Source of the DNA: an uncultured Chlorobiaceae bacterium
GTDB taxonomy: Bacteria > Bacteroidota > Ignavibacteria > UBA10030 > SZUA-254
Reading direction: 5' to 3'
Length of the DNA stretch: 64,000 bases
NCBI GenBank assembly: GCA_964484465.1
Contig: CAZAFL010000007.1
Coordinates: forward strand, 16,567 to 80,566
Part shown: positions 33,757 through 62,783 of the stretch, in pieces
Layout: the number at the start of each line of letters is the position of its first letter
How positions within the stretch are numbered: position 1 is the stretch's first letter
Translations under genes and position numbers: made by a program
The notes under the pieces: generated by a model
What the model was told of the DNA's origin: nothing
Seen by the model: the letters and a program-made list of their open reading frames with translations, nothing else
The model's database searches: none

Positions 33757-33770
33757 GATGTTATAGCTCC

Positions 33771-45659: not shown

Positions 45660-45673
45660 TCAATGGCAACTGC

Positions 45674-45697
45674 GGCTAACACGGCAAATAACGTCGC
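45674..45697 (+). mobile_element. Truncated attC (left arm only)
   Basis: GGCTAACACGGCAAATAACG nearly identical to the left arm at 44372; flank complementary at 16/17 nt to GTTAGCCGCAATTGCCA at 44499; no right arm found. Confidence 0.7.
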
Positions 45698-45904
45698 TGG
45701 GAACATTGGCTCTACCTGGTTCAATCGCCAAGAAAACAGATTGGTAGACCGCCATCTCTTCTGTGTTGATGCTTTACCTCGGCGTTTCATTATCATTTAT
45801 GTTCATTCTGGCAATCTTCCTCATGTTCTCCGGGCTCATCGAAAAAGGATAAAGTTCTAAAGAAGTGATCGCAACCAATTTGAAAGAATTCTAACAGGAC
45901 ATCC

Positions 45905-47593
45905 ATGTCATATCTTAGTCTGTCTGTGCGAGAAGCCATCAATCTTGTTAACGCCCCCGTCAATGGGTGGTTCCTGCCATCCATCCAGCGACCCTATGTT
46001 TGGGGAAGTCGGTATGAAAGTGAGCTATACATCTGCAAGTTATTCGACTCTTTGTTGCGGGGTTATCCCATCGGCGGACTGATCGTCTGGAACACAAAAG
46101 AGGAAGTTCCGTTCAGAGAATTCATGCATGACTACCACAATGCTTCCATCCCAACACAGGTCGACAAGGGTCAGTGGAAGAGGCCGGACAAGTGGCTTGT
46201 GTACGACGGACAACAACGTTTACAGACTTTGTTTTCGTGCCTCCGGTACACTTTCAATGGAAAGGTGCTCATCTTCGATCTGCTTTTTGACCTGGACAAA
46301 GAGGACCGGGAGATGGATGAAACAGGTTTTTCTTTCGTCGGTAAGAACGATTCGACTGAAGCCCATCTTGTTCGACTCAATTCCCTATTCACGCAAAAGC
46401 CCGACCAAGACCCTGAGTTCGAGGAGCAGATATTGGCTAGCCTTGGTTCACTTTCCAAGGAGCAAACGACTCTAGTTAAGAAGAACCTCAAACGTCTGTG
46501 GAAGGTGTTTGTGGAAACGGACAAGAAATCACTCGCCTATTTCCCCATCGAAAACAAGAGAGAGGAAGAAGTTAATGAAGTCTTCCAAAGATTAAATACC
46601 GGCGGTGTTCCTCTCTCGCTTGCCGACTTGGTTTTATCACGCATCAAGGAGGACTTCTTTGACTTCGAGGAAAACCTGCAAATGTTTTCCAGAGACATTT
46701 ACAGCCACACCACCAACGGATACACTTTCTCTCACTACGAAATTCTTCAACTTATTTATCTCATCCACAAAGGAACTATGAGAATCGACCCAAAACAAGT
46801 CAATTCTACGAAGGACACAAAGGCGATGAATGACATCTGGCTGAAGCTCAAACCGTCTCTGGATAGCTTCTTCGTAGACTTCATTTGGGGACAATTCAAA
46901 ATCAACAATTCTTCCATCGTTCCCCGCCAGAGAGCCCTTCTTCCTCTTATCGTGTATTTCTTTGAGCTGTACAACAATGGTGTCTCGTTCAAAAAGCTGA
47001 AGCCTGAAGCGTTACTCTTGCTGAACCAATATTTCATTCTCTCCCAAGTCAACGATTGGAGCCTACAATCGCTCATCGACAATTTCAGCAAGACCATACT
47101 GGACAAATCAAAGAAGTCCGATGGCTACTTCGATTTCCCACTCAACGATTTCATCGCCTCGCTCTACAAGACAAAGAAGCGAGAAACACAGTTGCTTGAA
47201 GCTCGCTTTACTGAATACACGTGGTTTTCACTGAAGGTTCTCACGCCCCAAAGGGTTTACCAATTCGATCCAGATTCATCGGGAAGATTCAGTCCGGAGA
47301 TTGACCACATTTTTCCTATGAAGCTCGAAGATCAAACCGATGAGTACTATGAATCGGTGGACATTATCTGGAACATGCAACCTGTAAAAGGCGACATAAA
47401 TAACTACAAGCGGCGAAAGCATCCGCTTGAATTCTTCACCGGAGATGGGCACAAGTTCTTGAAGGACTATGATTTTCTCCCGACTCATGACTTATCCGTC
47501 GAAGTCTGGAACCAACCAATTCCGTTCATCAAGGTGCGGCGCGTCAAGATGATGAAATTCCTGAAAGATGAATATGGCTTGGTTCTCAAATAG
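45905..47593 (+). CDS. GmrSD-type (DUF262 + DUF1524/HNH) modification-dependent restriction protein
   Basis: LPSIQRPYVW, DGQQRLQTL, FQRLNTGGVPLS, EIDHIFP...N. Confidence 0.85.
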   Translation: MSYLSLSVREAINLVNAPVNGWFLPSIQRPYVWGSRYESELYICKLFDSLLRGYPIGGLIVWNTKEEVPFREFMHDYHNASIPTQVDKGQWKRPDKWLVYDGQQRLQTLFSCLRYTFNGKVLIFDLLFDLDKEDREMDETGFSFVGKNDSTEAHLVRLNSLFTQKPDQDPEFEEQILASLGSLSKEQTTLVKKNLKRLWKVFVETDKKSLAYFPIENKREEEVNEVFQRLNTGGVPLSLADLVLSRIKEDFFDFEENLQMFSRDIYSHTTNGYTFSHYEILQLIYLIHKGTMRIDPKQVNSTKDTKAMNDIWLKLKPSLDSFFVDFIWGQFKINNSSIVPRQRALLPLIVYFFELYNNGVSFKKLKPEALLLLNQYFILSQVNDWSLQSLIDNFSKTILDKSKKSDGYFDFPLNDFIASLYKTKKRETQLLEARFTEYTWFSLKVLTPQRVYQFDPDSSGRFSPEIDHIFPMKLEDQTDEYYESVDIIWNMQPVKGDINNYKRRKHPLEFFTGDGHKFLKDYDFLPTHDLSVEVWNQPIPFIKVRRVKMMKFLKDEYGLVLK

Positions 47594-47613
47594 CGATGAG
47601 GGCTTCAAACAGC

Positions 47614-47680
47614 ACATAACAGCTGTAAGAGTGACATGCTGAGTCGGGGATGAAAAAGAAAGTAACGTCTAGCGTTAAGC
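47614..47680 (+). mobile_element. Degenerate attC-like site
   Basis: ACATAAC just after the gene stop and GTTAAGC downstream; internal arms pair poorly. Confidence 0.3.
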
Positions 47681-47786
47681 TCAGCAGTTTTGCTCGCACG
47701 CCCATTGGCCCATGCAAAGGTTCGCAAAGCTGCTGACATTTGACGCCAAACGTTGGGAAACCATTTGCTGCATTCAGCGTAACTTG

Positions 47787-49163
47787 ATGAAAGATAATCA
47801 GAAAAAAGAGGGAGAGCGTTGGGACATTGAGTGCCTCAGGCGCGAAGTCCCGGATTTGCGATTAGGCGAAATTCTGAGCGATGAACGACCTGACTTCATC
47901 GTTCGTTCAACCGATCCAAAATTGGGCATCGAGGTCACTCGACTATTCAAGAAGAAGCGAGGGTCTGGAAAGCCTATGCAGGCATTTGAGTCAGAAAGGC
48001 GTGCGATAGTCAAGAGAGCCCATCATCTTTTTGAGCGAAACTGTGCGGTCAAGTTGAAGGTGGCGGTCTTTTTCTCAGGAACCGACGCCCCGTCGAAGCG
48101 GGTGAGAGAGAAAATCGCAATTCAGATCGGTGATATAGTTCGTTCCTGCATGCCACTCGATGACAATTCGGTCCGAGTTGACTCTCAGACCAGCGAACTC
48201 ATTTTTCCAATTGAAGTCTCGTCAATTCGTGTTACTCGATTCGGACCATTCATTCAGAGTATATGGTACGTACCAGTGGCCGGTTGGGTTCAAGAAGATT
48301 TCGTTGAAGAGCTCCAAGATATAATTGATGATAAAGCGAAGCTCTTCCCAAAATACTTGGCAAAATGCGATCGTTGCTGGTTGCTCATCATCGCGGATGC
48401 GACGGGTGAATCAGCGTTCTTTGAAGGTTCAGGCGAGACAATTGGGCATGAGTATCACTCTCCATTTGAACGAACGTACTTGTATGAAACCTTATCTCAA
48501 AAAGTGTTCCGGCTGCTCACCGTGGAACCAGTGTCTCGAATGAAAAATCCGTTTGTTCAACAGACATCCGAAGTTGATCGACTGAGAAACTCGCTTAGGG
48601 AGCATCTCGCACAAATGTGCAGAATTTTGCAGGCACCAGATCGTGATACTACCAATGCTTATATCTTCATAGCGGGGCAGCTGCGCGCATTGCTTTGTGA
48701 TCAGTATGCCATCATGGTCAAATACGCCGAGATTCAGAACCACGAGCTTAAAATTTGGGGCCCCAAGCCAAAGGAAATCATAGAAGGACATAACGTACTA
48801 ATGAGTGTTCACTTCCTCGTTGCGTCTTATGAAAGCAATCCGTTGATGAGAGAGATGAGCATCAAAGAGTATTTGCATACTCCCATTGGCGTCGCAAATT
48901 GGGAGAAGTACACCCCGTCGGAGATCATCAAACTCGTGGCAAACAAGGAGGGCGCAGCTCACCTCGACCCACACCAAAACGAGAAGCTCGAAGCCATCAA
49001 GAGCACGTTCGTTGTGAAAGCTTCACCCTCTGGTCGTGCTGATGACGACAAGCATGTTATATTGCGGACTGCAGTTCTTCAGATTGGGGCGTGGGCAAGT
49101 CGCTCTATCGAGGACCTCCTCGCACTACCTTTAGATCATAACAACAAGGCGGGCGCGAGTTGA
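47787..49163 (+). CDS. Two-domain hypothetical protein; N-terminal PD-(D/E)xK-like nuclease fold
   Basis: ERPDFIV...LGIEVTRL; second domain with ANKEGAAHLDP; ATG 47787 (ORF track starts at 47712). Confidence 0.6.
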   Translation: MKDNQKKEGERWDIECLRREVPDLRLGEILSDERPDFIVRSTDPKLGIEVTRLFKKKRGSGKPMQAFESERRAIVKRAHHLFERNCAVKLKVAVFFSGTDAPSKRVREKIAIQIGDIVRSCMPLDDNSVRVDSQTSELIFPIEVSSIRVTRFGPFIQSIWYVPVAGWVQEDFVEELQDIIDDKAKLFPKYLAKCDRCWLLIIADATGESAFFEGSGETIGHEYHSPFERTYLYETLSQKVFRLLTVEPVSRMKNPFVQQTSEVDRLRNSLREHLAQMCRILQAPDRDTTNAYIFIAGQLRALLCDQYAIMVKYAEIQNHELKIWGPKPKEIIEGHNVLMSVHFLVASYESNPLMREMSIKEYLHTPIGVANWEKYTPSEIIKLVANKEGAAHLDPHQNEKLEAIKSTFVVKASPSGRADDDKHVILRTAVLQIGAWASRSIEDLLALPLDHNNKAGAS

Positions 49164-49227
49164 CCAGAGAGTCGAGTTGCGCTGACTGCCTGTCGCAGCT
49201 GAGGCGTTCGACTAACGCCTCAGCACA
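49136..49227 (+). mobile_element. Degenerate attC-like end of array with perfect hairpin
   Basis: TCATAAC overlapping the gene end; GCTGAGGCGTT-CGACT-AACGCCTCAGC 11 bp stem. Confidence 0.4.
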
Positions 49228-49304
49228 ACCAACATAACGGGTCGCTGGCTCTTACATAACCATTTAAGTGATTGTATCTGCATAAACCTGCGCTGTGTCG
49301 TTGT

Positions 49305-49419
49305 GGGCATTTCCTGTTGCCACATAAATTCAAAGAATTATGATTATTCTATCGGCAACAGGATATGCCCTTTGGACAGGCTTTGGCGCTAAAAGCGCCA
49401 GATTTTCAAATGAGTGCTT
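49305..49419. repeat. Structured repeat family 2, copy A
   Basis: GGGCATTTCCTGTTGCC...GGCAACAGGATATGCCC; then TGGCGCT-AAA-AGCGCCA; then GAGTGCTT. Confidence 0.85.
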
Positions 49420-49554
49420 ATCCCGCTGGAGTGAATTTGCAGCGGGATAGGCACAATTCTAATTCTATGCTGGCGTTTTTCTCTCTCTATTATATAGACC
49501 ACGCCCTAGTCAAAGACCATTTACAGCTATTTTGCACTGTTAGGTGCTGATTTG

Positions 49555-50073
49555 TTAACGTATTACAAGATGTGTCCCTCGAAGGATCTCAACGCCTTTC
49601 GGAATGACTCCAGTGGCTTTAACATGTTCGAGAATTTTTGCCTTGTCTACTTCCACTTTGATTTTCAAGAACTGCTCATCGAGTTCATCCATGTTTTTAA
49701 CATCAACACCCGACTGGCTTTGGGCAACGTATATCGTGAATAAAGCGTATTTGATTTTTTCTGAACCCGACGCTTCCATGCTGACTTTGATATAGTTTTT
49801 CAGCCAATCGATGCGATTGTCGAACGAACGTTTGCGTTCAGAAAGGCGTTTCGCTTCGCCCGCCAGCGCATCCCGCTGTGCTTCGAGATTCCTAATGAAC
49901 TTCACGATGTCGGTCACTTTGTCAACAAACTTCATGTTGAGGTGGTCGAGAGCGTCGCGGAACTGTTCGAGGCGTTCTTTGCCTTCGCCGCTGGAATTGT
50001 CGGATATTTCAGATTCATCGAGTTTGTTTAATACTATGAGTTCGCTTGTGATTTCATAAAGAGGTTCGTTCAT
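49555..50073 (-). CDS. Siphovirus Gp157-family protein
   Basis: K...IVKFIRNLEA...EAKRLSERKR...NRIDWLKNYI...VDKAKI...GVEI...HLVIR. Confidence 0.85.
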   Translation of the reverse strand: MNEPLYEITSELIVLNKLDESEISDNSSGEGKERLEQFRDALDHLNMKFVDKVTDIVKFIRNLEAQRDALAGEAKRLSERKRSFDNRIDWLKNYIKVSMEASGSEKIKYALFTIYVAQSQSGVDVKNMDELDEQFLKIKVEVDKAKILEHVKATGVIPKGVEILRGTHLVIR

Positions 50074-50192
50074 TGGTCGTTCGCCTTCATGGATGGTTTG
50101 ATTTGTTGATAGTTAATGATTGTGAATTTGTTATACCAAATCGAGGTTAGAATTTCGGAACTTTCTTTGGAAGAAAGTTCCACAAAGAACAT

Positions 50193-50358
50193 CCGCAATC
50201 GTAAACGCACAGCAACGGAATGTCAGTCCACGATAAAAAACGATTTCATCTGCCTCATTTAACCTGATATTCACGGACATCGGTCGTCGATGAAATCGCA
50301 AAGCTCAGATTGATATTCCAACCGCACAGGCTAAACGATTGCGGAGGCGGCGTTTGAA
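50193..50358. promoter_or_regulatory. Structured repeat family 1, copy 1 (upstream of gp157)
   Basis: Stems CCGCAATCGT/ACGATTGCGG and CGATTTCATC/GATGAAATCG; minus-strand CTGACA-N17-TACGAT. Confidence 0.7.
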
Positions 50359-50481
50359 AGGAATAGGTTGAGGGGCATGGAGTGCTGGTTGTATGCCGTC
50401 GTCGATTTCAAATTCTTACCTTGCAATCGGCAAGGGCGGATATGGTTCCGCCCTTGTTTTGCATCTATGGAGAAAAACCCA

Positions 50482-51186
50482 TTAGAACGGTACGTCGTCC
50501 TTTTCGCCTTCCACTTCTGCTGCGACCAGAGCAACCTGAGATGAATGTTCCCTGTTGTCCCCCACAAGAGCGGATGTCTGCTTCGTGCGGCGTGTTCGCT
50601 TGTTATTGCCGTTACCGTTTCCATTGCCGTTGGAAAGGCAATGTTGAGCGGTAAGCTGGCCGGTACGAGACAAGAACAATGTAACACCGATTTTTTCGAT
50701 GTCAGTGTTTCTCCACTCTACCCCGGGAATCAAACGGGTAATATCGACAGCATCGAGCAACGATTGATGCATCACTAACGTATCGCCGGAAAACCCCTCC
50801 GGAGTTAAGTTTGGGGGCATGACTATCTCCGCAGGTGGCTGTAATAGCTGTTGGGCGATCGTTTTTCCGTTTACGTTGTGAGCTGTATCCGACACCGCAC
50901 CTTTTTTCTGGTCAATCACATTGATAACCGTGAATGGTTCTCCCTTTTGTGGCGTGATCGTTTCTTTCAGCAGGCTTAATGTGTCGCCTACTTTCACATC
51001 GAACTTGCGAAATTGCTTTTCGAGCCGGTCTGAAACTTTCAGCGCCTTCTCTTTTCCGTCGTGAAGGACAGTATAGAGCTGATAGGAACCGAACTGTCCT
51101 TCCTTTTTCAGACCAGTCGCAAATTTTAAGGTGACATCCACAAGCTGACGCTCGGGGATTTGGACAAATTCTCTCTGGTTATTCAT
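50482..51186 (-). CDS. Phage-type single-stranded DNA-binding-like protein
   Basis: AAAGGAG RBS before ATG 51186; beta-rich N-terminus and acidic tail ending EKDDVPF (SSB-Ct-like). Confidence 0.55.
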   Translation of the reverse strand: MNNQREFVQIPERQLVDVTLKFATGLKKEGQFGSYQLYTVLHDGKEKALKVSDRLEKQFRKFDVKVGDTLSLLKETITPQKGEPFTVINVIDQKKGAVSDTAHNVNGKTIAQQLLQPPAEIVMPPNLTPEGFSGDTLVMHQSLLDAVDITRLIPGVEWRNTDIEKIGVTLFLSRTGQLTAQHCLSNGNGNGNGNNKRTRRTKQTSALVGDNREHSSQVALVAAEVEGEKDDVPF

Positions 51187-51314
51187 TGTACCACTCCTTT
51201 GGTTGGTATATTGAAAGTTGATTGTAGAAATCTTATACCAAATTGGAAGGCATTTCATTCGGAATTTACTTTCTCTTTGAAGAGAAAGTAACAAAGATCC
51301 CGCATTTGGCGGGA

Positions 51315-51479
51315 CGCAATCGTAAACGCACGGCTTTGTAAAGGCTGACTCGGCTAAGAGGCGATTTCATCTATCGACCAGAATGAGTTATTTGAATGCG
51401 TCCGCTTTCGATGAAATCGCAAAGCTCCGTTTGATGTCCGACCGCTCACGCTCTACGATTGCGGAGGCAGGCCTTTGAA
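51315..51479. promoter_or_regulatory. Structured repeat family 1, copy 2 (upstream of SSB-like gene)
   Basis: Stems CGCAATCGTA/TACGATTGCG and GCGATTTCATC/GATGAAATCGC; TTGATG-N17-TACGAT in the right arm. Confidence 0.7.
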
Positions 51480-51510
51480 GCAAAAAAATTTCTTTTATTC
51501 TGCTGTAGGA

Positions 51511-52104
51511 TTACAGACTAAGCTCGAGCTGAAATTGTGAAATTCCGGAGATTCTTGAAGAAAGGCGATTAAGGGCATTCTTCACAGTTTGAACCTGCAC
51601 CGATAGGCACTGAGAAATTTCTTCATCACCAAAACCGCTAACTTTCATATCAATGATGGTTCGTTCATTCTGTGACAGGTGTGAAAGTTTTTGCTCAATA
51701 TCGATCTTGAATGAGACCTCGGTTTCAATATCGATGGCTGCGCTGATATTATCGGCGTATGTATCGTCTTCACCTTCAAAGACCGGGTTATGAACGGAGT
51801 ACAGTTCCAACCTTCCTTCGTAGTAATTGCGTTTGTTGAACACATCCCTCTTGTTAGTTCGTGAGTACCCTCGCATTTCGATTTGCACTTCCGCTCTGCG
51901 GAATTTCATATAATTGATGACAAGGGGTAACTCCATGATCTTACCCTCACCCGCCTTGCGCGTGAATACCTCGTATGCAAGAACTATAAGGTCCTGTACT
52001 TTATCCTCGAATTGTGGATGACGCTTATCGATCATTCGTTGCGCTGCTTTGTATAAACTTGGTGTGTAATTTGAGAAAATGGAGTTGAGTTGTTGGTGGG
52101 ACAT
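51511..52104 (-). CDS. Phage-like sigma-70-family protein
   Basis: C-terminal sigma-4-like LSQNERTIIDMKVSGFGDEEISQCL...TVKNALNR. Confidence 0.65.
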   Translation of the reverse strand: MSHQQLNSIFSNYTPSLYKAAQRMIDKRHPQFEDKVQDLIVLAYEVFTRKAGEGKIMELPLVINYMKFRRAEVQIEMRGYSRTNKRDVFNKRNYYEGRLELYSVHNPVFEGEDDTYADNISAAIDIETEVSFKIDIEQKLSHLSQNERTIIDMKVSGFGDEEISQCLSVQVQTVKNALNRLSSRISGISQFQLELSL

Positions 52105-52982: not shown

Positions 52983-54266
52983 TCAATTGTTATGCTCCTG
53001 AAGTATGGTAAACAGTTTATCCTTTGTTTCTTTCACAGAACGTTCCAAATGCGCAGTTTCTCTTAAATGAAAAAACAACGTGTCGGAAAGAGTAAGAAAG
53101 TGGATGGACATGAACAACAATACTTTGCCGACCATCGCGACAGTAACGAGAACAATCTTGATACCTTCATTCCAGTTATGTAACATGCCAATGCCTTCAC
53201 CTTGCGGTAAAATCAGGGTGAACGAACCCTGGATTCCAAAATATAAGAACAGAGCAACCACTATAGATCGAGGGAGAGAGAAAAATTTGCTCGTGGACGT
53301 GCTCACGAAAAATGCCATTGCGACAGTAGCCAGAACCCCTGCCATCATGCTAAATACAATGGAAATGATCTGACTTTCCTCAGAATGAGATTTTGACGAC
53401 CATTGGAGAATTATTTCAAGAGAAAATATCATAAGAAAGATCACTACCGGTACTTGCCAATTCATTTTTCTTTCCCTAATCACCACCTCTTTCTCCCTGA
53501 AACCACTCGAAGGAAGAAAGCCCGGAAGTGGGTCGCTCTCTTGTTTCTGCACTGTATCGACTGTTCTATCTGTGAGTATTAAAAAACATATGTAAAGGTA
53601 TACACTATCAAGGTTGTTCAGAAGGTCAAGTATTGGATTTACCCAAAATTCTTTAAGCTGAAGGTATTCAAAAATGGAAAAAGAGAAATATAGCAAGCTC
53701 CACAAAATCCAAACCACTTGCCAAAACTCCCAGAACTGCTTGGTAGCAATTGATGCTCTTTGGTCTTCCGGTAAAGAGAGAGGCTGGAGGCCAAATCGTA
53801 TCACGAAGAGAACAAAGGTTGCTGCAATCCCCTGAATTCCAAAGGAAAGCACCTTAAAAGGTGGAAAGTTAGGATTGACTGTAAGGACCAACGCCATCAT
53901 GAGGATCGAACCCAATGTAAGACCATAGATTATGAATCCAGCGGGATAACGCAAGGCCGATGAGACCCATTCCCCGAAGGTATTCTCTCTATTTGGCCTG
54001 GGGAGAAAAATGGCCCTCTGGACAAGTAATGAGAGTCGTTTTGTCAATGTGACCGCCGGGAAATGAGGTCTACGCGTATGTTGTGATTCTATTTGAAACC
54101 AGGCGGAATCAAACTCTCGCACCGAATGGATGAGTTTCGTGCAATCTTTGCATTGCGCAAGATGGTTGTCCATAGCAAGGTTATCATCATCCGATAATAA
54201 CCCATCAACATACTTGCACGCATTTTCGAATGTAACATGCAGGTCTTTTTCGAATTCCCTGGTCAT
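52983..54266 (-). CDS. Zinc-finger (HxxxCxxC) anti-sigma factor fused to a polytopic membrane domain
   Basis: N-terminal HLAQCKDC; about 7-8 hydrophobic segments; overlaps the sigma gene stop (ATGA). Confidence 0.8.
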   Translation of the reverse strand: MTREFEKDLHVTFENACKYVDGLLSDDDNLAMDNHLAQCKDCTKLIHSVREFDSAWFQIESQHTRRPHFPAVTLTKRLSLLVQRAIFLPRPNRENTFGEWVSSALRYPAGFIIYGLTLGSILMMALVLTVNPNFPPFKVLSFGIQGIAATFVLFVIRFGLQPLSLPEDQRASIATKQFWEFWQVVWILWSLLYFSFSIFEYLQLKEFWVNPILDLLNNLDSVYLYICFLILTDRTVDTVQKQESDPLPGFLPSSGFREKEVVIRERKMNWQVPVVIFLMIFSLEIILQWSSKSHSEESQIISIVFSMMAGVLATVAMAFFVSTSTSKFFSLPRSIVVALFLYFGIQGSFTLILPQGEGIGMLHNWNEGIKIVLVTVAMVGKVLLFMSIHFLTLSDTLFFHLRETAHLERSVKETKDKLFTILQEHNN

Positions 54267-55222
54267 TTCATAACCAACCCTCTCATGACAAATTTTTGCT
54301 TTGTATCTTCAAGCACCGAGTGAGACCAATGACTTATTATGCTTGCTTCATCTTCAATGTTGTTTCCTCTTTCCCCGTAATACATTGCGAGGAAAGTAGT
54401 TCCTACCACTAGTTCGAGATATTCCGCCAGCCTCTTTTGGTTAACTCTGTCCTTTTCCTTTATGGTCTGGTTTAGTTTTTTTTCCATCTTTTTTCGGAGA
54501 GCTACGAATTCATTTGTAAGATCGCATGTAGCATAAGATTTCTCAATATCAGCGGCCAGCAACATAAGTTTGGTAGCAGATTTCTTCAACGCGATGTCGG
54601 CCGGCTTCCATCCCAACAAGCGATTATAGAAAAAAACCAGGAAGCACCAGGGGTAACAAACCTCAACTGCAATTGCAATAATCCGCTGAATCCTAGCGTC
54701 TGGCTCCAAGTCTTTATTCCGGGGAGTATCATCAAGCGATCCGCCCGCTTCATCCCCCTCTTTCGAATGGAACCGCTTCTTGAAAAAATTAATAGCCGTA
54801 TTCCTTATTACTATGAATAACCAAGTGGAAAACCTCGCTTCCGGAATAAATCTTGGTGCAGCGAGTTCAACTTTAATCCAAACTTCCTGACCAATGTCAT
54901 TGCAATCGTCTTTGTTTGCCCAGTCGATATATCGAACCTGATGACTAATAATCCGCTCAACATATCTTCTGTAAAGCTCATAAAGATAAGCTGTCGATCC
55001 TTGACGATACAATTCAAGTTGAACAGTTATATGATCATAGAGTAATATTTTCAAATGACTGAGTGCATTTTCTGAAACCTCAAAAGAATGTTTGAGATAA
55101 TCTGATTTTGTTGCCTGTAAGATCGCTTCACGTTTCTCTGTCGGTACAAAAGCAAAACTCATGAGGTGCCCAGTGAGCGCCTGCACATATTTCGTCCAGA
55201 TATCCTCTGTGGGTTCTTTCAT
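54263..55222 (-). CDS. Atypical ECF sigma factor with N- and C-terminal extensions
   Basis: DIGQEVWIKV...RFSTWLFIVIRNTAINFFKK region 2; degenerate region 4 LLGWKPADIA. Confidence 0.75.
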   Translation of the reverse strand: MKEPTEDIWTKYVQALTGHLMSFAFVPTEKREAILQATKSDYLKHSFEVSENALSHLKILLYDHITVQLELYRQGSTAYLYELYRRYVERIISHQVRYIDWANKDDCNDIGQEVWIKVELAAPRFIPEARFSTWLFIVIRNTAINFFKKRFHSKEGDEAGGSLDDTPRNKDLEPDARIQRIIAIAVEVCYPWCFLVFFYNRLLGWKPADIALKKSATKLMLLAADIEKSYATCDLTNEFVALRKKMEKKLNQTIKEKDRVNQKRLAEYLELVVGTTFLAMYYGERGNNIEDEASIISHWSHSVLEDTKQKFVMRGLVMK

Positions 55223-55481
55223 AAATGAAACAGTTCCTTCTGAGATGTGTCCGCGATTATCAGACGCCGGCCGTGATCCTGAAAATCAGGGAATAATGTA
55301 TGCAGCATATTTACGAAAAGCAAACACACCTTCTTTCAAAGGTTAAACATTTGGTAGTGTCAATTATCCCACCACGTCGGAAAAAAACGCAAATATTCGC
55401 CGAAATTCATGTTATGCCGGGCATGGTATCAAGTAATTTCCAATTCAAAGGTTCAACATAGCAAGAAAGGAGGTGATAATC

Positions 55482-55598
55482 ATGAAAGCGATAATCATGG
55501 CATTGTTGAGTGCATTGCATATGCATTCTCAAGTTCATGCGACTACAGCAGTGGATTCGCCATTCATTTGTCGAACGCCCCCGATCCCATGCTGCTGA
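55482..55598 (+). CDS. Small Cys-tailed peptide (38 aa), absent from ORF track
   Basis: AAGGAGGTGA RBS; MKAIIMALLSALHMHSQVHATTAVDSPFICRTPPIPCC*. Confidence 0.75.
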   Translation: MKAIIMALLSALHMHSQVHATTAVDSPFICRTPPIPCC

Positions 55599-55620
55599 TA
55601 TCCGCAACGCCGTACCCCAA

Positions 55621-55648
55621 GGGTGGGTCCAGCAATCCGGGCCCACCC
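55621..55648 (+). other. Stem-loop between peptide gene and acyltransferase genes
   Basis: GGGTGGGTCC / GGGCCCACCC stem with no U-tract. Confidence 0.6.
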
Positions 55649-55684
55649 ACATTTACCAACTTTGAGAACATAGGAGAACACGGT

Positions 55685-56605
55685 ATGGATAGAAGGGACA
55701 CTGAAGATATACTCGTCGGGACAATGAACAAATTCTTGCCAACATCTTGTCATGATTTTGGGGCGCTTTTGACAAGCAGGATTTCATTGAAACTCTTTTC
55801 GAGAGATCAAAAACGAATTCGTCAGATCCTATTACATGCCATTCCCACAATGAGAATATCTGAATGCGATCGAGCCCTCTCAAAACGAGAGCACATTCTC
55901 CATACGAACCTTTGGGATCTTGCTCTTGCGTCCAGCCATCCCATGACATTTGCGAAAGTGGCTAGTCAAATAACGCACGACTTTTCAGGTTTAGGTCCAT
56001 TAGAACTTGCAGTTTCCTCGAAGCGGCCTGTATTGCTTGTAACGATGTACAGTGGACGAATGACAATGTCGTCGTTTTCGATGATTAGCCATGTTTTGCC
56101 GAGACATCAGATTGTGTTGTACATGTATCTCAACCCTACGATGGCACCCTTTTGGCGAAACCTGGTTTCCAGATGCTTACCGGAAGTATCAAGCTACTTT
56201 CAACCGATTGCTTTCACGCGTGGACGTGAAGATCGCAATGTCGAGAGGCTTCTTTTGCGACGACTTATTTCTCGCGATGCATGTATTTTTTTTGGTTTTG
56301 TTGATACAATTCTTTTCCCAATAGGTTCACCAACGATTCCGCTTCCCTGGTTGGGTTCGTCCTTCGAAACGTCTGAGTTTCTTGCCCGGATAGCTCGGAC
56401 AGGAGATTGTTCAGTTCTCGCTTTTGAGTCACATTGGGATTCAGAAAGCAGGAATTGCATCCGATACACGGCTACCAAGTTGTTCGACCATGCATCGGAG
56501 GTGAACGGAACAGAATTCAATAAAGCAATCCTTGGGTATGCACAGAATTTTGTTCTGGAGAACCCCCACGAGTGGCACAGTTGGCATTCGGTATTTCATT
56601 CTTAA
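55685..56605 (+). CDS. Divergent LpxL/LPLAT-like acyltransferase homolog (catalytic His apparently replaced)
   Basis: AGGAG RBS before ATG 55685; LLVTMYSGR at the usual HxG position, GFVD, LARIAR, FVLENPHEWHSW. Confidence 0.6.
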   Translation: MDRRDTEDILVGTMNKFLPTSCHDFGALLTSRISLKLFSRDQKRIRQILLHAIPTMRISECDRALSKREHILHTNLWDLALASSHPMTFAKVASQITHDFSGLGPLELAVSSKRPVLLVTMYSGRMTMSSFSMISHVLPRHQIVLYMYLNPTMAPFWRNLVSRCLPEVSSYFQPIAFTRGREDRNVERLLLRRLISRDACIFFGFVDTILFPIGSPTIPLPWLGSSFETSEFLARIARTGDCSVLAFESHWDSESRNCIRYTATKLFDHASEVNGTEFNKAILGYAQNFVLENPHEWHSWHSVFHS

Positions 56606-56615
56606 GGAGGTCAAT

Positions 56616-57566
56616 ATGGATTTCTCCAATTTCTATTTCCGATTACTTGAGCGTAAACACGGCGCAGCGTTGCTCCGAACGTTGGCAGCAGCAAGACGTC
56701 TAATTTCAAAAATTGCACTTTTTGTTGCGTTGAAGCGCCAGTTACAGTATTACCGCCAGAGTTCGAAGGCGATAGAAGTATCTCTTCCTCATACCTCTCT
56801 CCAAGAACGAGAAACAATAGCGAGGTCAAGTTACGAAGCGACAATTGAGCAATTCTTTCACTATTCGCAACTTCTTTCACCTCAATGTATGCAGAGCGAG
56901 CTTGAACGTTCGAAAGAGTATTGCGTGCGAGGGACCCAATTCTTAGATAACGTGCTATCGAGTACATCTGGAGCGGTTTTCGTATCTTGTCACTTGGGCC
57001 GTTTCTATGACATTCTTCTGGCGTTAGCGCCGAGAGCGATGGGCCGACAAATAATCATTCTTCGAGGTTACTCTTCACCTTGGCGTTCAGCGATCCTCGG
57101 AAACATCAGCCAGTTAACCTCCACCAAGTTTAACGATCTCGAAATCCTTGACCGCCGCACGGGCCTCGCTGCACACAGAAAGTTACAGGAAGGTGCGTTT
57201 CTTGCTACGATGGTGGATTATCATTACGCCAATACTCGCTCGTGCCAATGCGATTTTTTTGGTCAACCAATTAATGTTCCTGTCGGGATGGCAATCCTTG
57301 CAAGCAGAGCCCATGTCCCTCTTATCCCTGTTGTGACTTACCTGGACAGCAGCTCCGGAAGCCGTGTGGTCGAATTGTGTGGAAACATTAATGTGAGTTC
57401 AGGAAAGCATGGTCCTGAGGGGGCGATTAATGAATGTTTGCACTTCTTTGAAACGAGAATACGAAATTTTCCCGGTCAGTGGTTACATTGGCCGTTGCTA
57501 CCAGAATTGTGGGTGTCGAATGAGATCAAATCTGAAGAAGAGCATCTTAGGAAGAATCAATTCTAA
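56616..57566 (+). CDS. LpxL/LPLAT-like acyltransferase
   Basis: AAGGAGG RBS; FVSCHLGRFYD, MVDY...DFFGQP...GMAILA...PLIPV, ETRIRNFPGQWLHW. Confidence 0.8.
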   Translation: MDFSNFYFRLLERKHGAALLRTLAAARRLISKIALFVALKRQLQYYRQSSKAIEVSLPHTSLQERETIARSSYEATIEQFFHYSQLLSPQCMQSELERSKEYCVRGTQFLDNVLSSTSGAVFVSCHLGRFYDILLALAPRAMGRQIIILRGYSSPWRSAILGNISQLTSTKFNDLEILDRRTGLAAHRKLQEGAFLATMVDYHYANTRSCQCDFFGQPINVPVGMAILASRAHVPLIPVVTYLDSSSGSRVVELCGNINVSSGKHGPEGAINECLHFFETRIRNFPGQWLHWPLLPELWVSNEIKSEEEHLRKNQF

Positions 57567-58019: not shown

Positions 58020-58424
58020 TCAGGCGAAGGGTAAGCCTTTTGGGGTGAAGGCGTCCAACGCAAGGTGTATCAAATAAGCAGCGATTGCGACGAGGAGAAG
58101 AAGGAGAATGAGCTGCACCCACGGGTCTGCCTCCTTAACCTTCTCTAAAAAAAGGCTCTCTTGTGTCAATTCCTTCCAGACTTGAACCCCGACATAACCT
58201 ACCGCGAGTCCAAACACAAAACTGTGACAGAATTCTCTGTGATTCGGATGCAATGCGGGCTCAAGAATATCGGGAAACCTACCAGTGGCGGCGCCGGTAA
58301 CGCCGCAGAAGATGAGATGACCCAAATCGGCGGGTTGACCGGGGCGTGTTTTTTCTTGCAAGATAAAGGAGGTCGCGACTCCGGCGAGCATTCCTGTTAA
58401 AGTGTGTGTCTTTCCGTTTGGCAT
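58020..58424 (-). CDS. YdjM-like membrane metal-dependent hydrolase
   Basis: GKTH, PDILEP, HREFCHS, HLALDAFTPKGLP. Confidence 0.85.
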   Translation of the reverse strand: MPNGKTHTLTGMLAGVATSFILQEKTRPGQPADLGHLIFCGVTGAATGRFPDILEPALHPNHREFCHSFVFGLAVGYVGVQVWKELTQESLFLEKVKEADPWVQLILLLLLVAIAAYLIHLALDAFTPKGLPFA

Positions 58425-58460
58425 ATCTTGTTTTCCTTTCTCAGATAAAAATAATTTCTA

Positions 58461-59813
58461 TTAGAGGTCAAGCCATACCGTATCGCCTGCTCCGAGATAC
58501 GCTTCGCACTTGGAACATGATAGATTGGGTTTTACTGACCAATTTTCCAGCGTTCCGGTCATCCCGTCGAATTTTTTGATGACTAGAGGATAGTCCCCAG
58601 GGCGATAACCAACAAGCAGTTGCATAACCTCATTCATTGCAGCACTTGCGAGTAAGCCATTGAAACTAACAACCTGTGCTTGTTTATCAGTTCCCTGAAA
58701 GTAACTGCGTGGTTTACCGCCTGTTTCTACACTAAGTTTGCGACCTGATAAGAAACCCATACACCACATACACAATTGGCCGGGGACCAAAGTAAGCACA
58801 TTCCCTCCAATACTCGCAGAGTCATGCCCATTCGGAGTGATAAGTAATCCAATGTCCACATAGGGAATACAATAGCGGAGACAAATTTCCTGGATGTCTG
58901 ATCGGGTTGTTAAACTATCAACGCACCCTACTACGATGTCTGCCCGTTTAAGCCGGTCAATTGCTTCCTTAGAAGGAACTTTGTATGGAACCGGTGTGAA
59001 TGTAATGGTTCGGTTAATCCGACTAACAAGGTTTGCCATAACTTTGGTTTTCTTGTGCTTCATCCGCACATTGAACCTCGAAAGTCCAACCATACGATGA
59101 CGGTTCTCTTCTTCTGAGACATCATCATCGATTCCAATAATTTCGCCGATACCCAAGTGAGCCGCCTGCTGCACCACATGGCTTCCTCCGCCGCTCAGGC
59201 CGACAACCGCTATCTTCGCACCTTGCAATCGCCGTTGCCCCCTATTCCCAATTAGCAACGCCTGCCGATGGTACATGCGATCGACAGGATTGTGTGTTGA
59301 TGTGATGCTATCGTCATCCCAATCGACCATAGTATTTCGCAACCAGCGCATGCGAGAAATTTCTCTGAAGTGGGCTGTCTCAGGCATAAGGATGAGACCG
59401 GATGCATGCTCCTCCCCTATGACAATTGAACCGTGTGGCCGCCACGGGACCAAGTTTTGATATGTAGGTAAAAGAGTCTTTGCGCTCTGGAGGTCGTCTT
59501 TAGAAAGACCAACCTTACCCTTGTGCCCGTGCGCGTGAAAAATGATGATACCAAGCTTCTTTTCTATCGCTTCATTGATGATGTGGATTGTCGCAGAACC
59601 ACGCCACATTGCGCCATGATGAGTTGTTTCAACGTATTGCTCTTCATGCAGTGTGAAGAGCTTCTTTATCAAGAGAAGGCTCTTGTCAGTTGTTTCTGCG
59701 CTACTGATGAGGGCGAAGACAACATGCTCATACCTGCCAGGACGAAAAACCTCCTCTTTCAGTTTCTTCCCCAAACGATCAGGAATTCGAACTTCAATTG
59801 GTTTTTGTATCAT
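58461..59813 (-). CDS. JAB/MPN peptidase - ThiF/E1 fusion (BubCD-like)
   Basis: FHAHG...SKDD JAB motif; GLSGGGS, DDD, RHR, GCVDS adenylation motifs; CMWC and CSKC zinc ligands. Confidence 0.85.
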   Translation of the reverse strand: MIQKPIEVRIPDRLGKKLKEEVFRPGRYEHVVFALISSAETTDKSLLLIKKLFTLHEEQYVETTHHGAMWRGSATIHIINEAIEKKLGIIIFHAHGHKGKVGLSKDDLQSAKTLLPTYQNLVPWRPHGSIVIGEEHASGLILMPETAHFREISRMRWLRNTMVDWDDDSITSTHNPVDRMYHRQALLIGNRGQRRLQGAKIAVVGLSGGGSHVVQQAAHLGIGEIIGIDDDVSEEENRHRMVGLSRFNVRMKHKKTKVMANLVSRINRTITFTPVPYKVPSKEAIDRLKRADIVVGCVDSLTTRSDIQEICLRYCIPYVDIGLLITPNGHDSASIGGNVLTLVPGQLCMWCMGFLSGRKLSVETGGKPRSYFQGTDKQAQVVSFNGLLASAAMNEVMQLLVGYRPGDYPLVIKKFDGMTGTLENWSVKPNLSCSKCEAYLGAGDTVWLDL

Positions 59814-60172
59814 TCGTGTTTGGCAAACCTTCTGAGCGCACCTTCAATGAATTGTACAATGGTGTGCTGATTGGGATCCCACGAGAGCTGGTAGGAAAAC
59901 TGCATCCAGCTTTCACCCTCAATGGCAACAACACTTGTACTCCGGGGGTCGCGGCCGTTAGCCAATTTGATGCCAGGTTTGACATAGATTTCAGGCGTCG
60001 CCTGACCGAGTCGGACTACAAGCAATACCGGGGTAGATTGGGGATTGCATCCATCTGGCAATGCGACTGCAGCAATTTTAACAAAAGTTGCCGAGGCATT
60101 CGCTGCCATACTGACAGAATGGTATTGTTCCTTGACCTCCTCGAGGCCGGGTGATATAACTTCTGCGGTCAT
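59810..60172 (-). CDS. Prokaryotic E2-like protein lacking canonical catalytic Cys (BubB-like)
   Basis: LPDG...WMQFSY...WDPNQHTI pattern; between the Ubl and E1 genes. Confidence 0.7.
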   Translation of the reverse strand: MTAEVISPGLEEVKEQYHSVSMAANASATFVKIAAVALPDGCNPQSTPVLLVVRLGQATPEIYVKPGIKLANGRDPRSTSVVAIEGESWMQFSYQLSWDPNQHTIVQFIEGALRRFAKHE

Positions 60173-60181
60173 TCTCGCCTC

Positions 60182-60448
60182 CTAGCTAATACTTCCTGCA
60201 GGAAGAAGGACGAAGTGATCCCCCTCTTTTATCTCGATTACCTGGTCATCTGGTACAAATTCTATCTTCCCGTGGACTCGATGGCCGAGGTCATTGTTTG
60301 GTGGGACGCTTGCTTTCGCCTTAATTTGTGCGCCGGTCACATGGTCTACATCGAACTCAATTTTTCGGTGATCGGTCTTCGAGAATTCCACGAAGATGTG
60401 AATTGCCTTTTCAGTTTTCGGTTTAGTTATTGCTTCAGTAGGTTGCAT
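60182..60448 (-). CDS. Ubiquitin-like (multiubiquitin-type beta-grasp) protein (BubA-like)
   Basis: VTGAQIK...DDQVIEIKEGDHF pattern; ends PAG-SIS. Confidence 0.75.
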   Translation of the reverse strand: MQPTEAITKPKTEKAIHIFVEFSKTDHRKIEFDVDHVTGAQIKAKASVPPNNDLGHRVHGKIEFVPDDQVIEIKEGDHFVLLPAGSIS

Positions 60449-60461
60449 TCTTCGGTCCTCT

Positions 60462-60767
60462 CTATGAAAAAATATTTAATTTCTTATACGTATTTTGATT
60501 GCCTGTAGATATAACGTTGCATTTGAGGCGACCATCACTTTTGTCAACATTGTTTTCCCACTGGAGGGGTCGGAGGTTGTGCAATGAATCTGAACCCCCC
60601 GGTAAAATGTGATCTATTTCCCAGCCATAATCGGAATTTCTATTTCCGTATTGTTCTCTGTTGATCCAAGCACCACAGGCATCCTTTCTCCAAACTGATG
60701 GATCATAACTGGGTACCACGGTCCCCTTTTCCCAAACATCTTGGACGATTTCTTCGGTATTATTCAT
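60462..60767 (-). CDS. HNH endonuclease
   Basis: WRKDACG...GWEIDHI...NLRPLQWENN; GAGGAG RBS before ATG 60767. Confidence 0.9.
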   Translation of the reverse strand: MNNTEEIVQDVWEKGTVVPSYDPSVWRKDACGAWINREQYGNRNSDYGWEIDHILPGGSDSLHNLRPLQWENNVDKSDGRLKCNVISTGNQNTYKKLNIFS

Positions 60768-61430
60768 TCTAGTTCTCCTCATCTATTTTCGGACATCTCG
60801 TGAAAGAATGCCGGCGATGCCTCGTTGAGAGTCGAGTAAAATATTGTGCCGGATATGTATCAGCCATGAATACGTCCGCGGCGTAGGTTTTACTGCGAGA
60901 CAGGTGTGTTAGTCTGAGCGATAGCTCGCGAGATGGCGATGCGAATGGAAACCTGCGATCCCGATTGTAGTGGGCTGACCAAAGACGCCCTATGCCCCAT
61001 TGGGGTGTCAGGCGATGTGAAGCAAAGCCAAGATCCAACTCTGAAGTGCGATGGTGAAAACCGTACTTCCCTGAGGTGGCGGAAACCCGTTTCCGACGCG
61101 TTGGATTTATTGCAGGCCAAAACGCACCAACTCTCCCTAAAGCACACAACGCAACTGTTGATGTCGCCAATGCTACGGGAGCAGATGATTTCGATTGCGT
61201 GGTAGAATGTCATATGAATTCAGCCCAAGTCATGGGCTGATGGAGCGTCAATGGATCAGCCTCACTCGCCGCCACTTTCTCAGACTCCCATTCGACGACA
61301 CATCGCTCGGAGATTCTGTCTCATGAATAAGAACGGTGGTCAACGCATCATAGGTTGGCTTCGCGGTCTTTCCCGATATGCTCGATCCACCCATCCACAT
61401 GCAAGTCAAGTCTGGCGGAAAGGCACTCGA

Positions 61431-62783
61431 TCATAATGCTGGTGTGTGAGTTGTATGAGGTGAAAGCTTTGCCCCCCCGACATGGCGGATATTCTGCGCT
61501 CTCAATCCAGCACGATTCTTCTTCTTATCGAAGGACGGAACCGTGTCGAAGCTTACCCAATCACCCTCTTTCGAGTCTGCTGGAAGGTCGGACTTGAAGC
61601 AGAAGACGTCACCGTCTGACTTAGTTTTGATAAAGCAGTACGGGCGATCACTGGGGCCAAGTAGAACCTGCCCATGAATGTTTTCTTTTCGTAGCGGACG
61701 ATTTCCCAAGCGATTGGCAGAACCTCCAGCAATTTCGTTCCAGAAGAGACGACATATGTCCAGTGTTTCTTTCATGGGTAATTCCGGGAGAGGTGTTGAT
61801 GACAGTCTGGCCAATGAACTTGTCAATGATTGCGGCAATGACCAACCCTTTTCTTGTCGAATTAACTTCGAGAGGCTCAGATGAATCCCAGCTTCCACAT
61901 CCTTTGCGAGATCCAAGCAGATTTGTCCAATATCAGCGTACAACGTAACTGACATTTCGACGTTTGGGCAACTGAGTGCAGATTGACACATCATAGCCAA
62001 TGCTTCTTCCTTATGTCCATTGTCTGATATTACAGTAGCATATTCGTGTAATAACCACCACTCCGTATGCTTTCCCCGGCAGATATCGGAGTAGAGTTTT
62101 TGAGCCTGATCCAGCTCCCCCACTTTATGAAGAGCTATCGCTTTAAGTCGGAGGAAGAACTTTCTTTGCCTTAGGAATCTGGATGAAATCTCATCCACAA
62201 TTCGAATGACGTCCGAAAAATCCTCCTTTTCCAACAACGCATTAAGGCGATAGTTGTACCAAAGAGACTGATCACTCCAGCCTTCCCGTCCATTATCAGT
62301 CTTCATCGGCTCCATGGAGAGTGCAGCCGGATCAATTTTCACTACCCACTCGTCTACAACTTCCCACTTACCCAAGGCCTTCGCTACTTTCAACACTTTA
62401 AAGACTACTAGTTTGAGAGCAAGGCCATCCGGGTTAAGATCCATTATTTTCTTGGCAACGGGAAGCACGTCCTGAACGGTAGCCTCTTCACTTAATTTAG
62501 ACAGTACTCCTTCGATGTAGGTCCAAATCACTTCAACGCGGCACCACTCGAGATCGATGCAATGCGGTGCGAGCTCGTCTGCAAGCGGGACGGCTTCATC
62601 GAAGAGCTTGAGTTTGCGAAGAGAATTTAGGAGACCTACACCGTCAAACTTGTCTCTGGATTCATTCCACAGCTTGGCATAGATCCCTCGAGCATCAGAA
62701 TAGTTGCCCGCCTTCCGGAGTTCCTTGGCCGTCTTCTTCAAATCATATTTGTCTGAGGTGTTCACAGCAGAACTTCTTCTCAA
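61431..62783 (-). CDS. TPR-repeat protein with C-terminal cold-shock (OB) domain
   Basis: Helical repeats; C-terminal PYCFI...DVFCFKSDL...GDWVSF...RAQNIR; start may be GTG 62765. Confidence 0.75.
   Translation of the reverse strand: MRRSSAVNTSDKYDLKKTAKELRKAGNYSDARGIYAKLWNESRDKFDGVGLLNSLRKLKLFDEAVPLADELAPHCIDLEWCRVEVIWTYIEGVLSKLSEEATVQDVLPVAKKIMDLNPDGLALKLVVFKVLKVAKALGKWEVVDEWVVKIDPAALSMEPMKTDNGREGWSDQSLWYNYRLNALLEKEDFSDVIRIVDEISSRFLRQRKFFLRLKAIALHKVGELDQAQKLYSDICRGKHTEWWLLHEYATVISDNGHKEEALAMMCQSALSCPNVEMSVTLYADIGQICLDLAKDVEAGIHLSLSKLIRQEKGWSLPQSLTSSLARLSSTPLPELPMKETLDICRLFWNEIAGGSANRLGNRPLRKENIHGQVLLGPSDRPYCFIKTKSDGDVFCFKSDLPADSKEGDWVSFDTVPSFDKKKNRAGLRAQNIRHVGGAKLSPHTTHTPAL

Follow-up and report, generated by a model that had tools for sequence, protein, structure and literature searches.

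Here we describe a candidate three-gene operon in a 64,000-nucleotide stretch of contig CAZAFL010000007.1 from an uncultured Chlorobiaceae bacterium (the window; all coordinates are counted from its first letter), which quite possibly encodes a ribosomal peptide together with a pair of peptide-directed acyltransferases recruited from the LpxL/PatA, or lysophospholipid acyltransferase (LPLAT), family. The operon comprises a 38-aa open reading frame (ORF), hereafter the small ORF, a hairpin, and the genes for two LpxL-like proteins: AT1, which carries Tyr at the position of the catalytic His, and AT2, which keeps the His (Table 1). Comparative data from the relatives of AT2 shift the balance from a lipid enzyme that lies beside a small ORF to a peptide-directed LPLAT. 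They also raise the broader possibility, which we hold a little more tentatively, that an LpxL/PatA-fold clade has been recruited to attach lipid to the C-terminal Cys (or Ser) of ribosomal peptides. Such a clade would constitute a new, widespread class of lipidated bacteriocins or ribosomally made peptides with post-translational modifications (RiPPs), to which multi-core xW[ST]K[AGS]TC peptides and microcin-like peptides with a GG leader would belong. The window's version of it would be minimal and exporter-less, with an active enzyme, a dead paralogue and a signal-like leader. We rate the window locus as a minimal, atypical and putative member of the clade, and see the stronger lead in the clade at large, above all in the multi-core xW[ST]K[AGS]TC clusters.

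A small ORF and two LpxL-like proteins

The small ORF lies within the 460-bp gap between AT1 and a divergent extracytoplasmic function (ECF) sigma factor gene (start 55222). A preliminary description of this DNA, made from its letters alone, had reported a strong ribosome-binding site ahead of the ORF and a stem-loop after it, and both are indeed present; in the ORF listing itself the frame appears as 55473..55598, started from an upstream GTG. The predicted peptide opens with 20 hydrophobic residues that resemble a Sec signal or a leader (boundary VHA/TT) and continues into an 18-aa Cys- and Pro-rich tail that ends in CC. A duplication of GATAATCATG at 55475 and 55490 supplies a second in-frame ATG (Met6). 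Located 87 nt 5' of AT1 and co-oriented with it, the small ORF sits where a RiPP precursor gene would be expected. The peptide falls outside other precursor classes: it lacks the GG motif, and the window the C39 or ABC gene, that class II bacteriocins and peptidase-containing ABC transporter systems would require; its core contains neither Trp nor Lys and the window no radical-SAM (rSAM) gene, as the xW[ST]K[AGS]TC clusters would; and a lipobox is absent (HSQVHA/TTAV), the first Cys being position 30 in the context PFIC.

All three frames of the operon are intact and have good Shine-Dalgarno (SD) sites, and AGGAGG precedes several long ORFs of the window, AT2 included, indicating that the organism uses such sites. 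The SD of AT2, AAGGAGG, overlaps the stop codon of AT1, which points to translational coupling of the two enzyme genes. Upstream of its SD-linked ATG, the AT1 frame runs for a further 92 codons with no stop (55409-55684) and there overlaps the small ORF, which is in a different frame. An extension of AT1 to the ATG at 55409 was rejected, since no SD precedes that codon and the homologues' N-termini line up with the start at 55685; the upstream stretch is read as a chance open frame.

The arms of the hairpin are GGGTGGGTCC at 55621-55630 and GGGCCCACCC at 55639-55648. No U-run follows them and a terminator scan was negative, so that this is not a canonical terminator; it probably stabilises the transcript or attenuates. 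The fold z-score of the region is modest (-1.9 to -2.3), and in the minimum-energy fold CCGUACC (55610-55616) pairs with GGUAUGG over the AT1 start codon, enclosing the hairpin. Rfam returned chance-level matches only, and no element was assigned. A 16-nt direct repeat, TTCAAAGGTT(A/C)AACAT, stands twice upstream of the small ORF, its copies 109 bp apart, and is the only such signal in an intergenic region that shows no confidently recognisable ECF-type promoter; the sole promoter-like match near the small ORF overlaps its SD. These two copies are the best of three related elements in the divergent promoter region, TTC(T/A)(T/A)(T/A)C/GA..(T)GAAAC / GGTTAAAC / GGTTCAAC, at 55214-55235, 55331-55352 and 55440-55459.

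The two genes downstream had been described as LpxL/LPLAT-family genes with ribosome-binding sites, one bearing the catalytic His and one a Tyr in its place, and this holds. AT2, though very divergent, clearly matches PF03279 (Lip_A_acyltrans) with E 4.2e-14 and 52.9 bits (cut-off 22.3), and carries the catalytic His126 in CHLGRFYD, a conserved Asp201, the PxQW..W element and a C-terminal motif PGQWLHWPLLPELW. Its HX4(D/E) motif is non-canonical, HLGRFYD having Tyr at +5 and Asp at +6; its nearest relatives also have no acidic residue there, and AT2 retains every residue that is invariant in its clade. Its best NCBIfam equivalog match reaches 42 bits where 273 are required, and AT2 falls far under all LpxL and PatA equivalog cut-offs. 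Among solved structures its best sequence match is PatA (E 0.046). Consistent with the earlier statement that no lipid A genes are nearby, no lpx, lipid A or Kdo gene was found among the roughly 40 scanned window ORFs of at least 100 aa. AT1 and AT2 are LPLAT/LpxL-PatA proteins by fold and sequence, but do not qualify as functional lipid A acyltransferases by equivalog-level similarity or gene context.

AT1 is the degenerate paralogue. Tyr122 stands at its catalytic His position, while Asp207 and the C-terminal PxxW..W motif (PHEWHSW) are retained; in a MAFFT alignment of 29 sequences the His column reads Tyr in AT1 only and His in the other 28. No Pfam or NCBIfam model matched it, even at E 10, and a sequence search of the PDB gave noise. 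Residues 98-303 nevertheless align to an LpxL-like profile in hhalign (92.8%, E 3.9e-7), and custom hidden Markov models (HMMs) detect the protein at 18-23 bits. An AlphaFold2 (AF2) model built on an alignment of LpxL-like sequences reached a pLDDT of 80.8 and a pTM of 0.81, matched LpxM (5KNK, 5KN7) and PatA (5F2Z) with probability 1.0 and superposed on LpxM (5KNK, 5KN7) with a TM of about 0.65; an alignment of this kind biases the fold, and the model serves as support, not as independent proof. The single-sequence AF2 model (pLDDT 39.5) was unusable. By hhalign, custom HMMs, the MAFFT alignment and the AF2 model together, AT1 is assigned to the LpxL-like family.

Relatives of the enzymes and their gene neighbourhoods

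Both enzymes are orphans in a word-indexed search of 5.8 billion clusters, which returned only the queries, and no relative exceeds about 30% identity. With AT2 as the query, an exhaustive phmmer search of 1.84 billion representatives produced 476 hits at E <= 0.001, the best at E 2.3e-19 and 25% identity. The top hits combine H-x-[GAS]-x-[FY]-x with QWxxW and lack an acidic residue at +5; hits ranked lower are canonical, with HxGNWE and QWxWxHRRWK. AT2 scores 207.5 bits with an HMM of the clade and 144.8 bits with a canonical HMM, and its C-terminus matches the HMGDY / QWLHWHLLPEM subgroup. On this sequence evidence AT2 is placed in a non-canonical LpxL-like clade. Further searches added little: a profile search with alignment A2 recovered 8 proteins, a scan of a genome collection two loci only, and neither the A7 scan of metagenome contigs nor the AT2 scan of viral contigs yielded relatives.

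Gene neighbourhoods of the relatives of AT2 were read at loci L001-L019, and what follows covers those with readable flanks. An ABC-type exporter adjoins every such relative, most also adjoin a short precursor-like gene that a hairpin follows, and rSAM maturases, peptidases or a C39 bacteriocin transporter are frequent neighbours. The preliminary description had proposed scanning related loci for small ORFs, whose lack would have spoken against a peptide substrate; small ORFs with hairpins are in fact present there, inside clusters for peptide maturation and export.

The closest relative (P0003) is encoded at L001, where the gene order is acyl carrier protein (ACP), ketoreductase, rSAM/SPASM, acyltransferase, a 35-aa peptide gene, a second acyltransferase, YcaO-TPR, CPBP and ABC. 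The 35-aa peptide, MKKIKLPKIIKASPKDPTPAWKWSIKVGWGNKSSC, ends in KSSC, and its gene has a promoter TTGACA-17-TACAAT and the SD GAGGAGGTGA. AT2 finds its best match in the first L001 enzyme (E 1e-27) and AT1 in the second (E 9e-6 over 216 colinear residues); both L001 enzymes keep the His, and the AT1/AT2 pairing may be ancestral, as judged from these matches. L001 is itself an unusually rich hybrid cluster (203-1219 and 4923-9668), with two CPBP (Rce1-like) proteins around the LpxL-like pair.

A second group, found in Sagittula sp. S175, Ca. Thiodiazotropha and metagenomes, has the order precursor, rSAM, LpxL-like gene, small unknown protein, S49 or S9 peptidases and ABC/MacB, and its LpxL-like gene overlaps the rSAM gene by 4 nt. 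The rSAM enzymes have PapB, DynA and DarE as best NCBIfam matches, all below equivalog cut-offs, and NCBIfam (June 2026) holds no model for these precursor peptides or for their LpxL-like enzymes. The precursors (Table 1) carry 1-4 tandem heptapeptide cores xW[ST]K[AGS]TC, always end in Cys and are each followed by a strong hairpin.

In the third group (L008-L011, L018), nearest to AT2 by motif, the LpxL-like gene is joined by genes for a membrane fusion protein (MFP) and a C39 ABC transporter, and Gly/Ala-rich peptides with a GG leader end in EERDDC (L009) or TTDDS (L018). The LpxL-like genes with HMGDY/QWLHWHLLPEM always lie directly 5' of the MFP and C39-peptidase ABC genes (L018 4303-10461; L008 8001-12177; L010 3813-8088), and at L018 the GG-leader peptide and a 552-aa rhomboid-domain protein precede the LpxL-like gene. 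The remaining loci, L005, L014 and L015, show exporters only or a doubtful 38-aa ORF, and the short contigs of L005, L010/L011 and L015 carry no convincing precursor gene. A hairpin follows the precursor stop codon at L001, L006, L012, L013 and L017, as it does in the window. Furthermore, the enzyme subgroup tracks the peptide class, HF[AS]CFY enzymes occurring with WxKxTC peptides and HMGDY enzymes with GG-leader peptides.

The sole feature common to the window peptide and the peptides of the relatives is a terminal Cys. It ends 8 of the 10 small genes that adjoin clade members; of 2988 random small ORFs drawn from the same sequences, 4.2% have it. Counting the WxKxTC loci as one leaves about 3-4 independent Cys-ended families (WxKxTC, L001, L009 and the window), over which the chance of a shared terminal Cys is roughly 1e-4 to 1e-5.

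These features can be assembled into a working mechanism. AT2 would take an acyl chain from acyl-ACP, a donor suggested by family membership, and transfer it to the peptide, most likely as an S-acyl group at or beside the C-terminal Cys; this site is proposed because a terminal Cys (once Ser) is common to otherwise unrelated clade-adjacent peptides. AT1 may act as a non-catalytic partner that aids binding of the peptide, the ACP or the membrane, and the hairpin could keep peptide mRNA in excess of enzyme mRNA. The hydrophobic N-terminal 20 residues might serve as a leader, a membrane tether or a Sec signal, replacing the missing ABC exporter. As to its role, the product may be an antimicrobial, a signal or an envelope-associated lipopeptide.

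Weighing the explanations and comparison with known systems

Several observations weigh against a peptide substrate. To our knowledge, lipids or sugars are the substrates of every characterised LpxL/PatA-family enzyme, and identities of 20-32% between AT2 and members of its clade make any transfer of function weak. Among the roughly 40 scanned ORFs of the window (within about 10 kb for peptidase, ABC and MFP) there is no ABC exporter, MFP, peptidase, rSAM or ACP gene, in contrast to the exporter found at every related locus. A Sec signal would sit oddly with AT1 and AT2, which have no signal peptides and would still need access to the exported part. The peptide itself has no homologue or paralogue in similarity searches of the window and all fetched loci, nor any Pfam or NCBIfam match even at E 10. 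A codon-usage likelihood could not distinguish its ORF from random small ORFs and mildly preferred the AT1 frame that overlaps it. AGGAGGTGA occurs twice in 64 kb where 0.47 copies are expected, and because the second copy precedes a 6-codon ORF, the SD of the small ORF is suggestive but no proof by itself. Regarding the terminal Cys, two genes are exceptions, ending in Ser (L018) and in Glu (L014, a doubtful gene), and in the rSAM clusters the residue could serve rSAM thioether formation and not the acyltransferase; a link to the acyltransferase is favoured because the window and L009 have no nearby rSAM gene. The RiPP-like lipopeptide system of the preliminary description stands in part: its anatomy, the peptide clusters of the relatives and the parallel of two enzymes and a Cys-ended peptide at L001 speak for it, whereas an exporter, a maturase and a protease are missing from the window.

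The main alternative, which we consider rather unlikely, is that the AT pair acts on an envelope lipid or glycolipid (lipid A, a lysolipid or a lipid of the mannoside type), either in stress adaptation governed by the neighbouring ECF sigma factor or in self-protection from a membrane-active peptide. Clade members in peptide clusters would then be immunity genes, and the small ORF would encode either the toxic peptide that calls for protection or an unrelated small peptide, secreted or in the membrane. The substrates of characterised family members, the best structural matches (LpxM and PatA), the divergent ECF sigma/anti-sigma pair next door and the want of a maturase, protease or exporter all agree with such a role, and immunity genes are, as general knowledge has it, common in bacteriocin and RiPP clusters. 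However, AT2 fits the peptide-cluster clade 63 bits better than canonical LpxL, no lpx or kdo genes occur among the scanned window ORFs, and no ECF pair adjoins any relative. The peptide clusters point the same way, with their 4-nt overlap of LpxL-like and rSAM maturase genes and the co-variation of enzyme subgroup with peptide class; L001 moreover has its own ACP and ketoreductase, suiting a dedicated acyl donor for the product.

It is improbable, in our judgement, that the 38-codon ORF is no substrate gene at all, being either a chance ORF with a chance SD or a regulatory upstream ORF whose translation (by ribosome pausing at PPIP, for instance) would tune AT1 and AT2 together with the hairpin. 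Its missing homologues, its random-like codon usage, the chance occurrence of a strong SD elsewhere in the window, the Pro-rich stretch near its stop codon and the CCGUACC-GGUAUGG pairing across the AT1 start, around the hairpin, would fit such readings. Set against this, the combination of a strongly signalled, Cys-ended ORF, a hairpin and the enzymes recurs at six relatives, where repeated cores or GG leaders plainly mark the small ORFs as precursors; the fold z-score is modest, no U-run follows the hairpin and no Rfam element matches. Less probable still is that the locus is what decay has left of a larger peptide cluster, acquired horizontally and set in a defence and mobile-element island, with AT1 already inactivated, the exporter and maturase genes lost and no current function. 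Besides the lost His of AT1, this would account for the surrounding defence genes and phage leftovers, the orphan status of both enzymes and a codon adaptation of AT1 and AT2 that is weaker than that of other window genes; three intact frames with good SDs and translational coupling, and an AT2 that keeps all clade-invariant residues, are hard to square with decay.

By fold, the nearest counterparts of the pair are lipid enzymes. AT2 shares with LpxL/LpxM (HtrB/MsbB, PF03279) an above-threshold profile match, the catalytic His and the conserved Asp, and the AT1 model superposes on LpxM. It departs from them in its C-terminal motif, QWLHWPLLPELW instead of QWxWxHRRWK, in the +5 Tyr of HLGRFYD, in having no evident hydrophobic N-terminal anchor and in the peptide clusters that house its relatives. 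PatA, the mycobacterial phosphatidylinositol-mannoside acyltransferase (PDB 5F2T, 5OCE, 7OJT), is the best structure-sequence match of AT2 and a top fold match of AT1. It is likewise a peripheral LPLAT with no transmembrane anchor, and its His and distant acidic residue, Glu200, parallel His126 and Asp201 of AT2. In contrast, PatA uses palmitoyl-CoA to acylate a glycolipid at a mannose hydroxyl and has no peptide context, and identity is below 20%.

Enzymes that lipidate ribosomal products are known from other folds. HlyC-type acyltransferases, which the proposed system would resemble in outline, carry out an acyl-ACP-dependent lipidation of a ribosomal protein before its export by the HlyB/HlyD ABC/MFP system, as in RTX toxins, and the order acyltransferase-MFP-C39 ABC at L008-L011 and L018 resembles hlyCABD. 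HlyC is unrelated in fold (TAAT), targets internal Lys residues of large toxins and has the ABC and MFP partners that the window does not. Selidamides, lipolanthines, goadvionins, lipoavitides and aphotorhaptins have precursors that are fatty-acylated by cluster-encoded GNATs (PMC13647313, PMC8784127), and the RiPP fatty acyltransferases listed in a 2026 paper are GNATs only. GNATs form amides on Lys, Orn or the N-terminus, whereas here an LPLAT-type enzyme accompanies a conserved C-terminal Cys. DAG-RiPPs, like the window peptide with its signal-like N-terminus, are small peptides with a signal peptide, and are lipidated and membrane-bound via the lipoprotein pathway (PMC13056109). They require a lipobox Cys, [LVI][ASTVI][GAS]C, at the cleavage site and the housekeeping Lgt, Lsp and Lnt; the window peptide, by contrast, has no lipobox (VHA/TT), its Cys residues are C-terminal, and dedicated LPLAT genes adjoin it. 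Finally, the xW[ST]K[AGS]TC clusters share rSAM/SPASM enzymes, W-x-K, tandem cores and S9/S49 peptidases with three-residue cyclophane or darobactin-type rSAM RiPPs (WprA/B/P, PMC12957482). Those systems have no acyltransferase, and none is mentioned in PMC12957482; the window, for its part, has no rSAM gene.

In the non-subscription literature we found no relevant report of xW[ST]K[AGS]TC core motifs or of LpxL/LPLAT enzymes in RiPP, rSAM or bacteriocin contexts, and the earlier statement that no described pathway has this layout agrees with the searchable literature. We rate lipidated ribosomal peptides as already known and the LPLAT enzyme family as not described for this purpose. An acyl-ACP-dependent LPLAT that acts on peptides would be a new tailoring chemistry, known RiPP acylation in the searchable literature being that of GNATs or of the lipoprotein pathway; it would show that a lipid A enzyme fold can take on a peptide substrate and would offer a new handle for genome mining and gene-encoded lipopeptides. 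Were the site the terminal Cys, the reaction would be a bacterial counterpart of S-acylation. The related clusters, among them that of the named genome Sagittula sp. S175, provide a testable entry point. If the enzymes turned out to act on lipids as immunity factors, the clade would instead represent a new lipid-based self-protection tied to peptide antibiotics.

The surrounding window

Features of the operon, of its surroundings and of the related precursor genes are collected in Table 1.

Table 1. Features of the candidate operon, other features of the window, and precursor genes at related loci (positions of the latter refer to the locus or contig named)
Feature	Location	Strand	Remarks
Shine-Dalgarno site AAAGGAGGTGA of the small ORF	55466..55476	+	5 nt ahead of the ATG
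Small ORF, 38 aa, MKAIIMALLSALHMHSQVHATTAVDSPFICRTPPIPCC, candidate precursor	55482..55598	+	ATG 55482, TGA 55596-55598
Stem-loop	55621..55648	+	10-bp stem (one G-U pair), 8-nt loop, 22 nt past the small-ORF stop
AT1, 306-aa putative degenerate LpxL/PatA-fold paralogue	55685..56605	+	SD AGGAG 55672-55676
AT2, 316-aa Lip_A_acyltrans (PF03279) enzyme	56616..57566	+	SD AAGGAGG 56604-56610
Two copies of TTCAAAGGTT(A/C)AACAT	55335-55350, 55444-55459	+	upstream of the small ORF; possible promoter/operator elements
ECF-type sigma factor, 319 aa, Sigma70_r2	54263..55222	-	divergent from the operon
zf-HC2 anti-sigma factor, 427 aa	52983..54266	-	overlaps the sigma gene by 4 nt
YdjM-like membrane hydrolase	58020-58424	-	
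JAB (JAMM motif HAHGH)-ThiF/E1 fusion	58461-59813	-	
Possible E2-like protein, 120 aa	59810-60172	-	overlaps the JAB-ThiF/E1 fusion upstream
Small HNH-like protein	60462-60782	-	same group, plus an 88-aa ORF
GmrSD/HEC-05-like nuclease	45905-47593		
TPR + cold-shock-like PDC-M16B-type protein	61431-62783		
Siphovirus Gp157-like gene	49555-50073		
Small sigma/LuxR-like gene	51511-52104		
Patatin-like phospholipase	9222-10136		
L006/L007 precursor	L006 2880-3020		end QWSKATC
L002/L003 precursor	L002 578-721		end KWTKATC
L013 precursor	527-715		end GWSKSTC
L012/L016 precursor, Sagittula sp. S175, JBNAGB010000008.1	6283-6492		4 x SWTKATC
L017 precursor, Ca. Thiodiazotropha metagenome-assembled genome	5052-5318		2 x EWSKATC
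L019 precursor	2241-2501		3 x TWTKGTC

Next to the operon, the anti-sigma factor has a long C-terminal region that is hydrophobic and, by eye, apparently multi-pass. Nothing connects the operon with the ECF sigma/anti-sigma pair, a kind of neighbour that recurs at no relative's locus with readable flanks. On the other side, the group at 58020-60782 looks like a bacterial ubiquitin-like conjugation defence operon, with weak PADLOC E1-E2 hits; its genes run towards the acyltransferase operon, to which they are probably unrelated. Further out, the regions 44526-52104 and 61431-62783 form a defence and mobile-element island. A 1637-aa protein at 21341-26254 (minus strand) carries an fn3 domain and a weak C-terminal match to Por_Secre_tail, the sorting domain of the type IX secretion system, a hint of a source within the FCB group (Bacteroidota and relatives). 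The very large ORFs at 48-3059, 3075-6596, 29335-33801 and 33771-36968 have no Pfam match.

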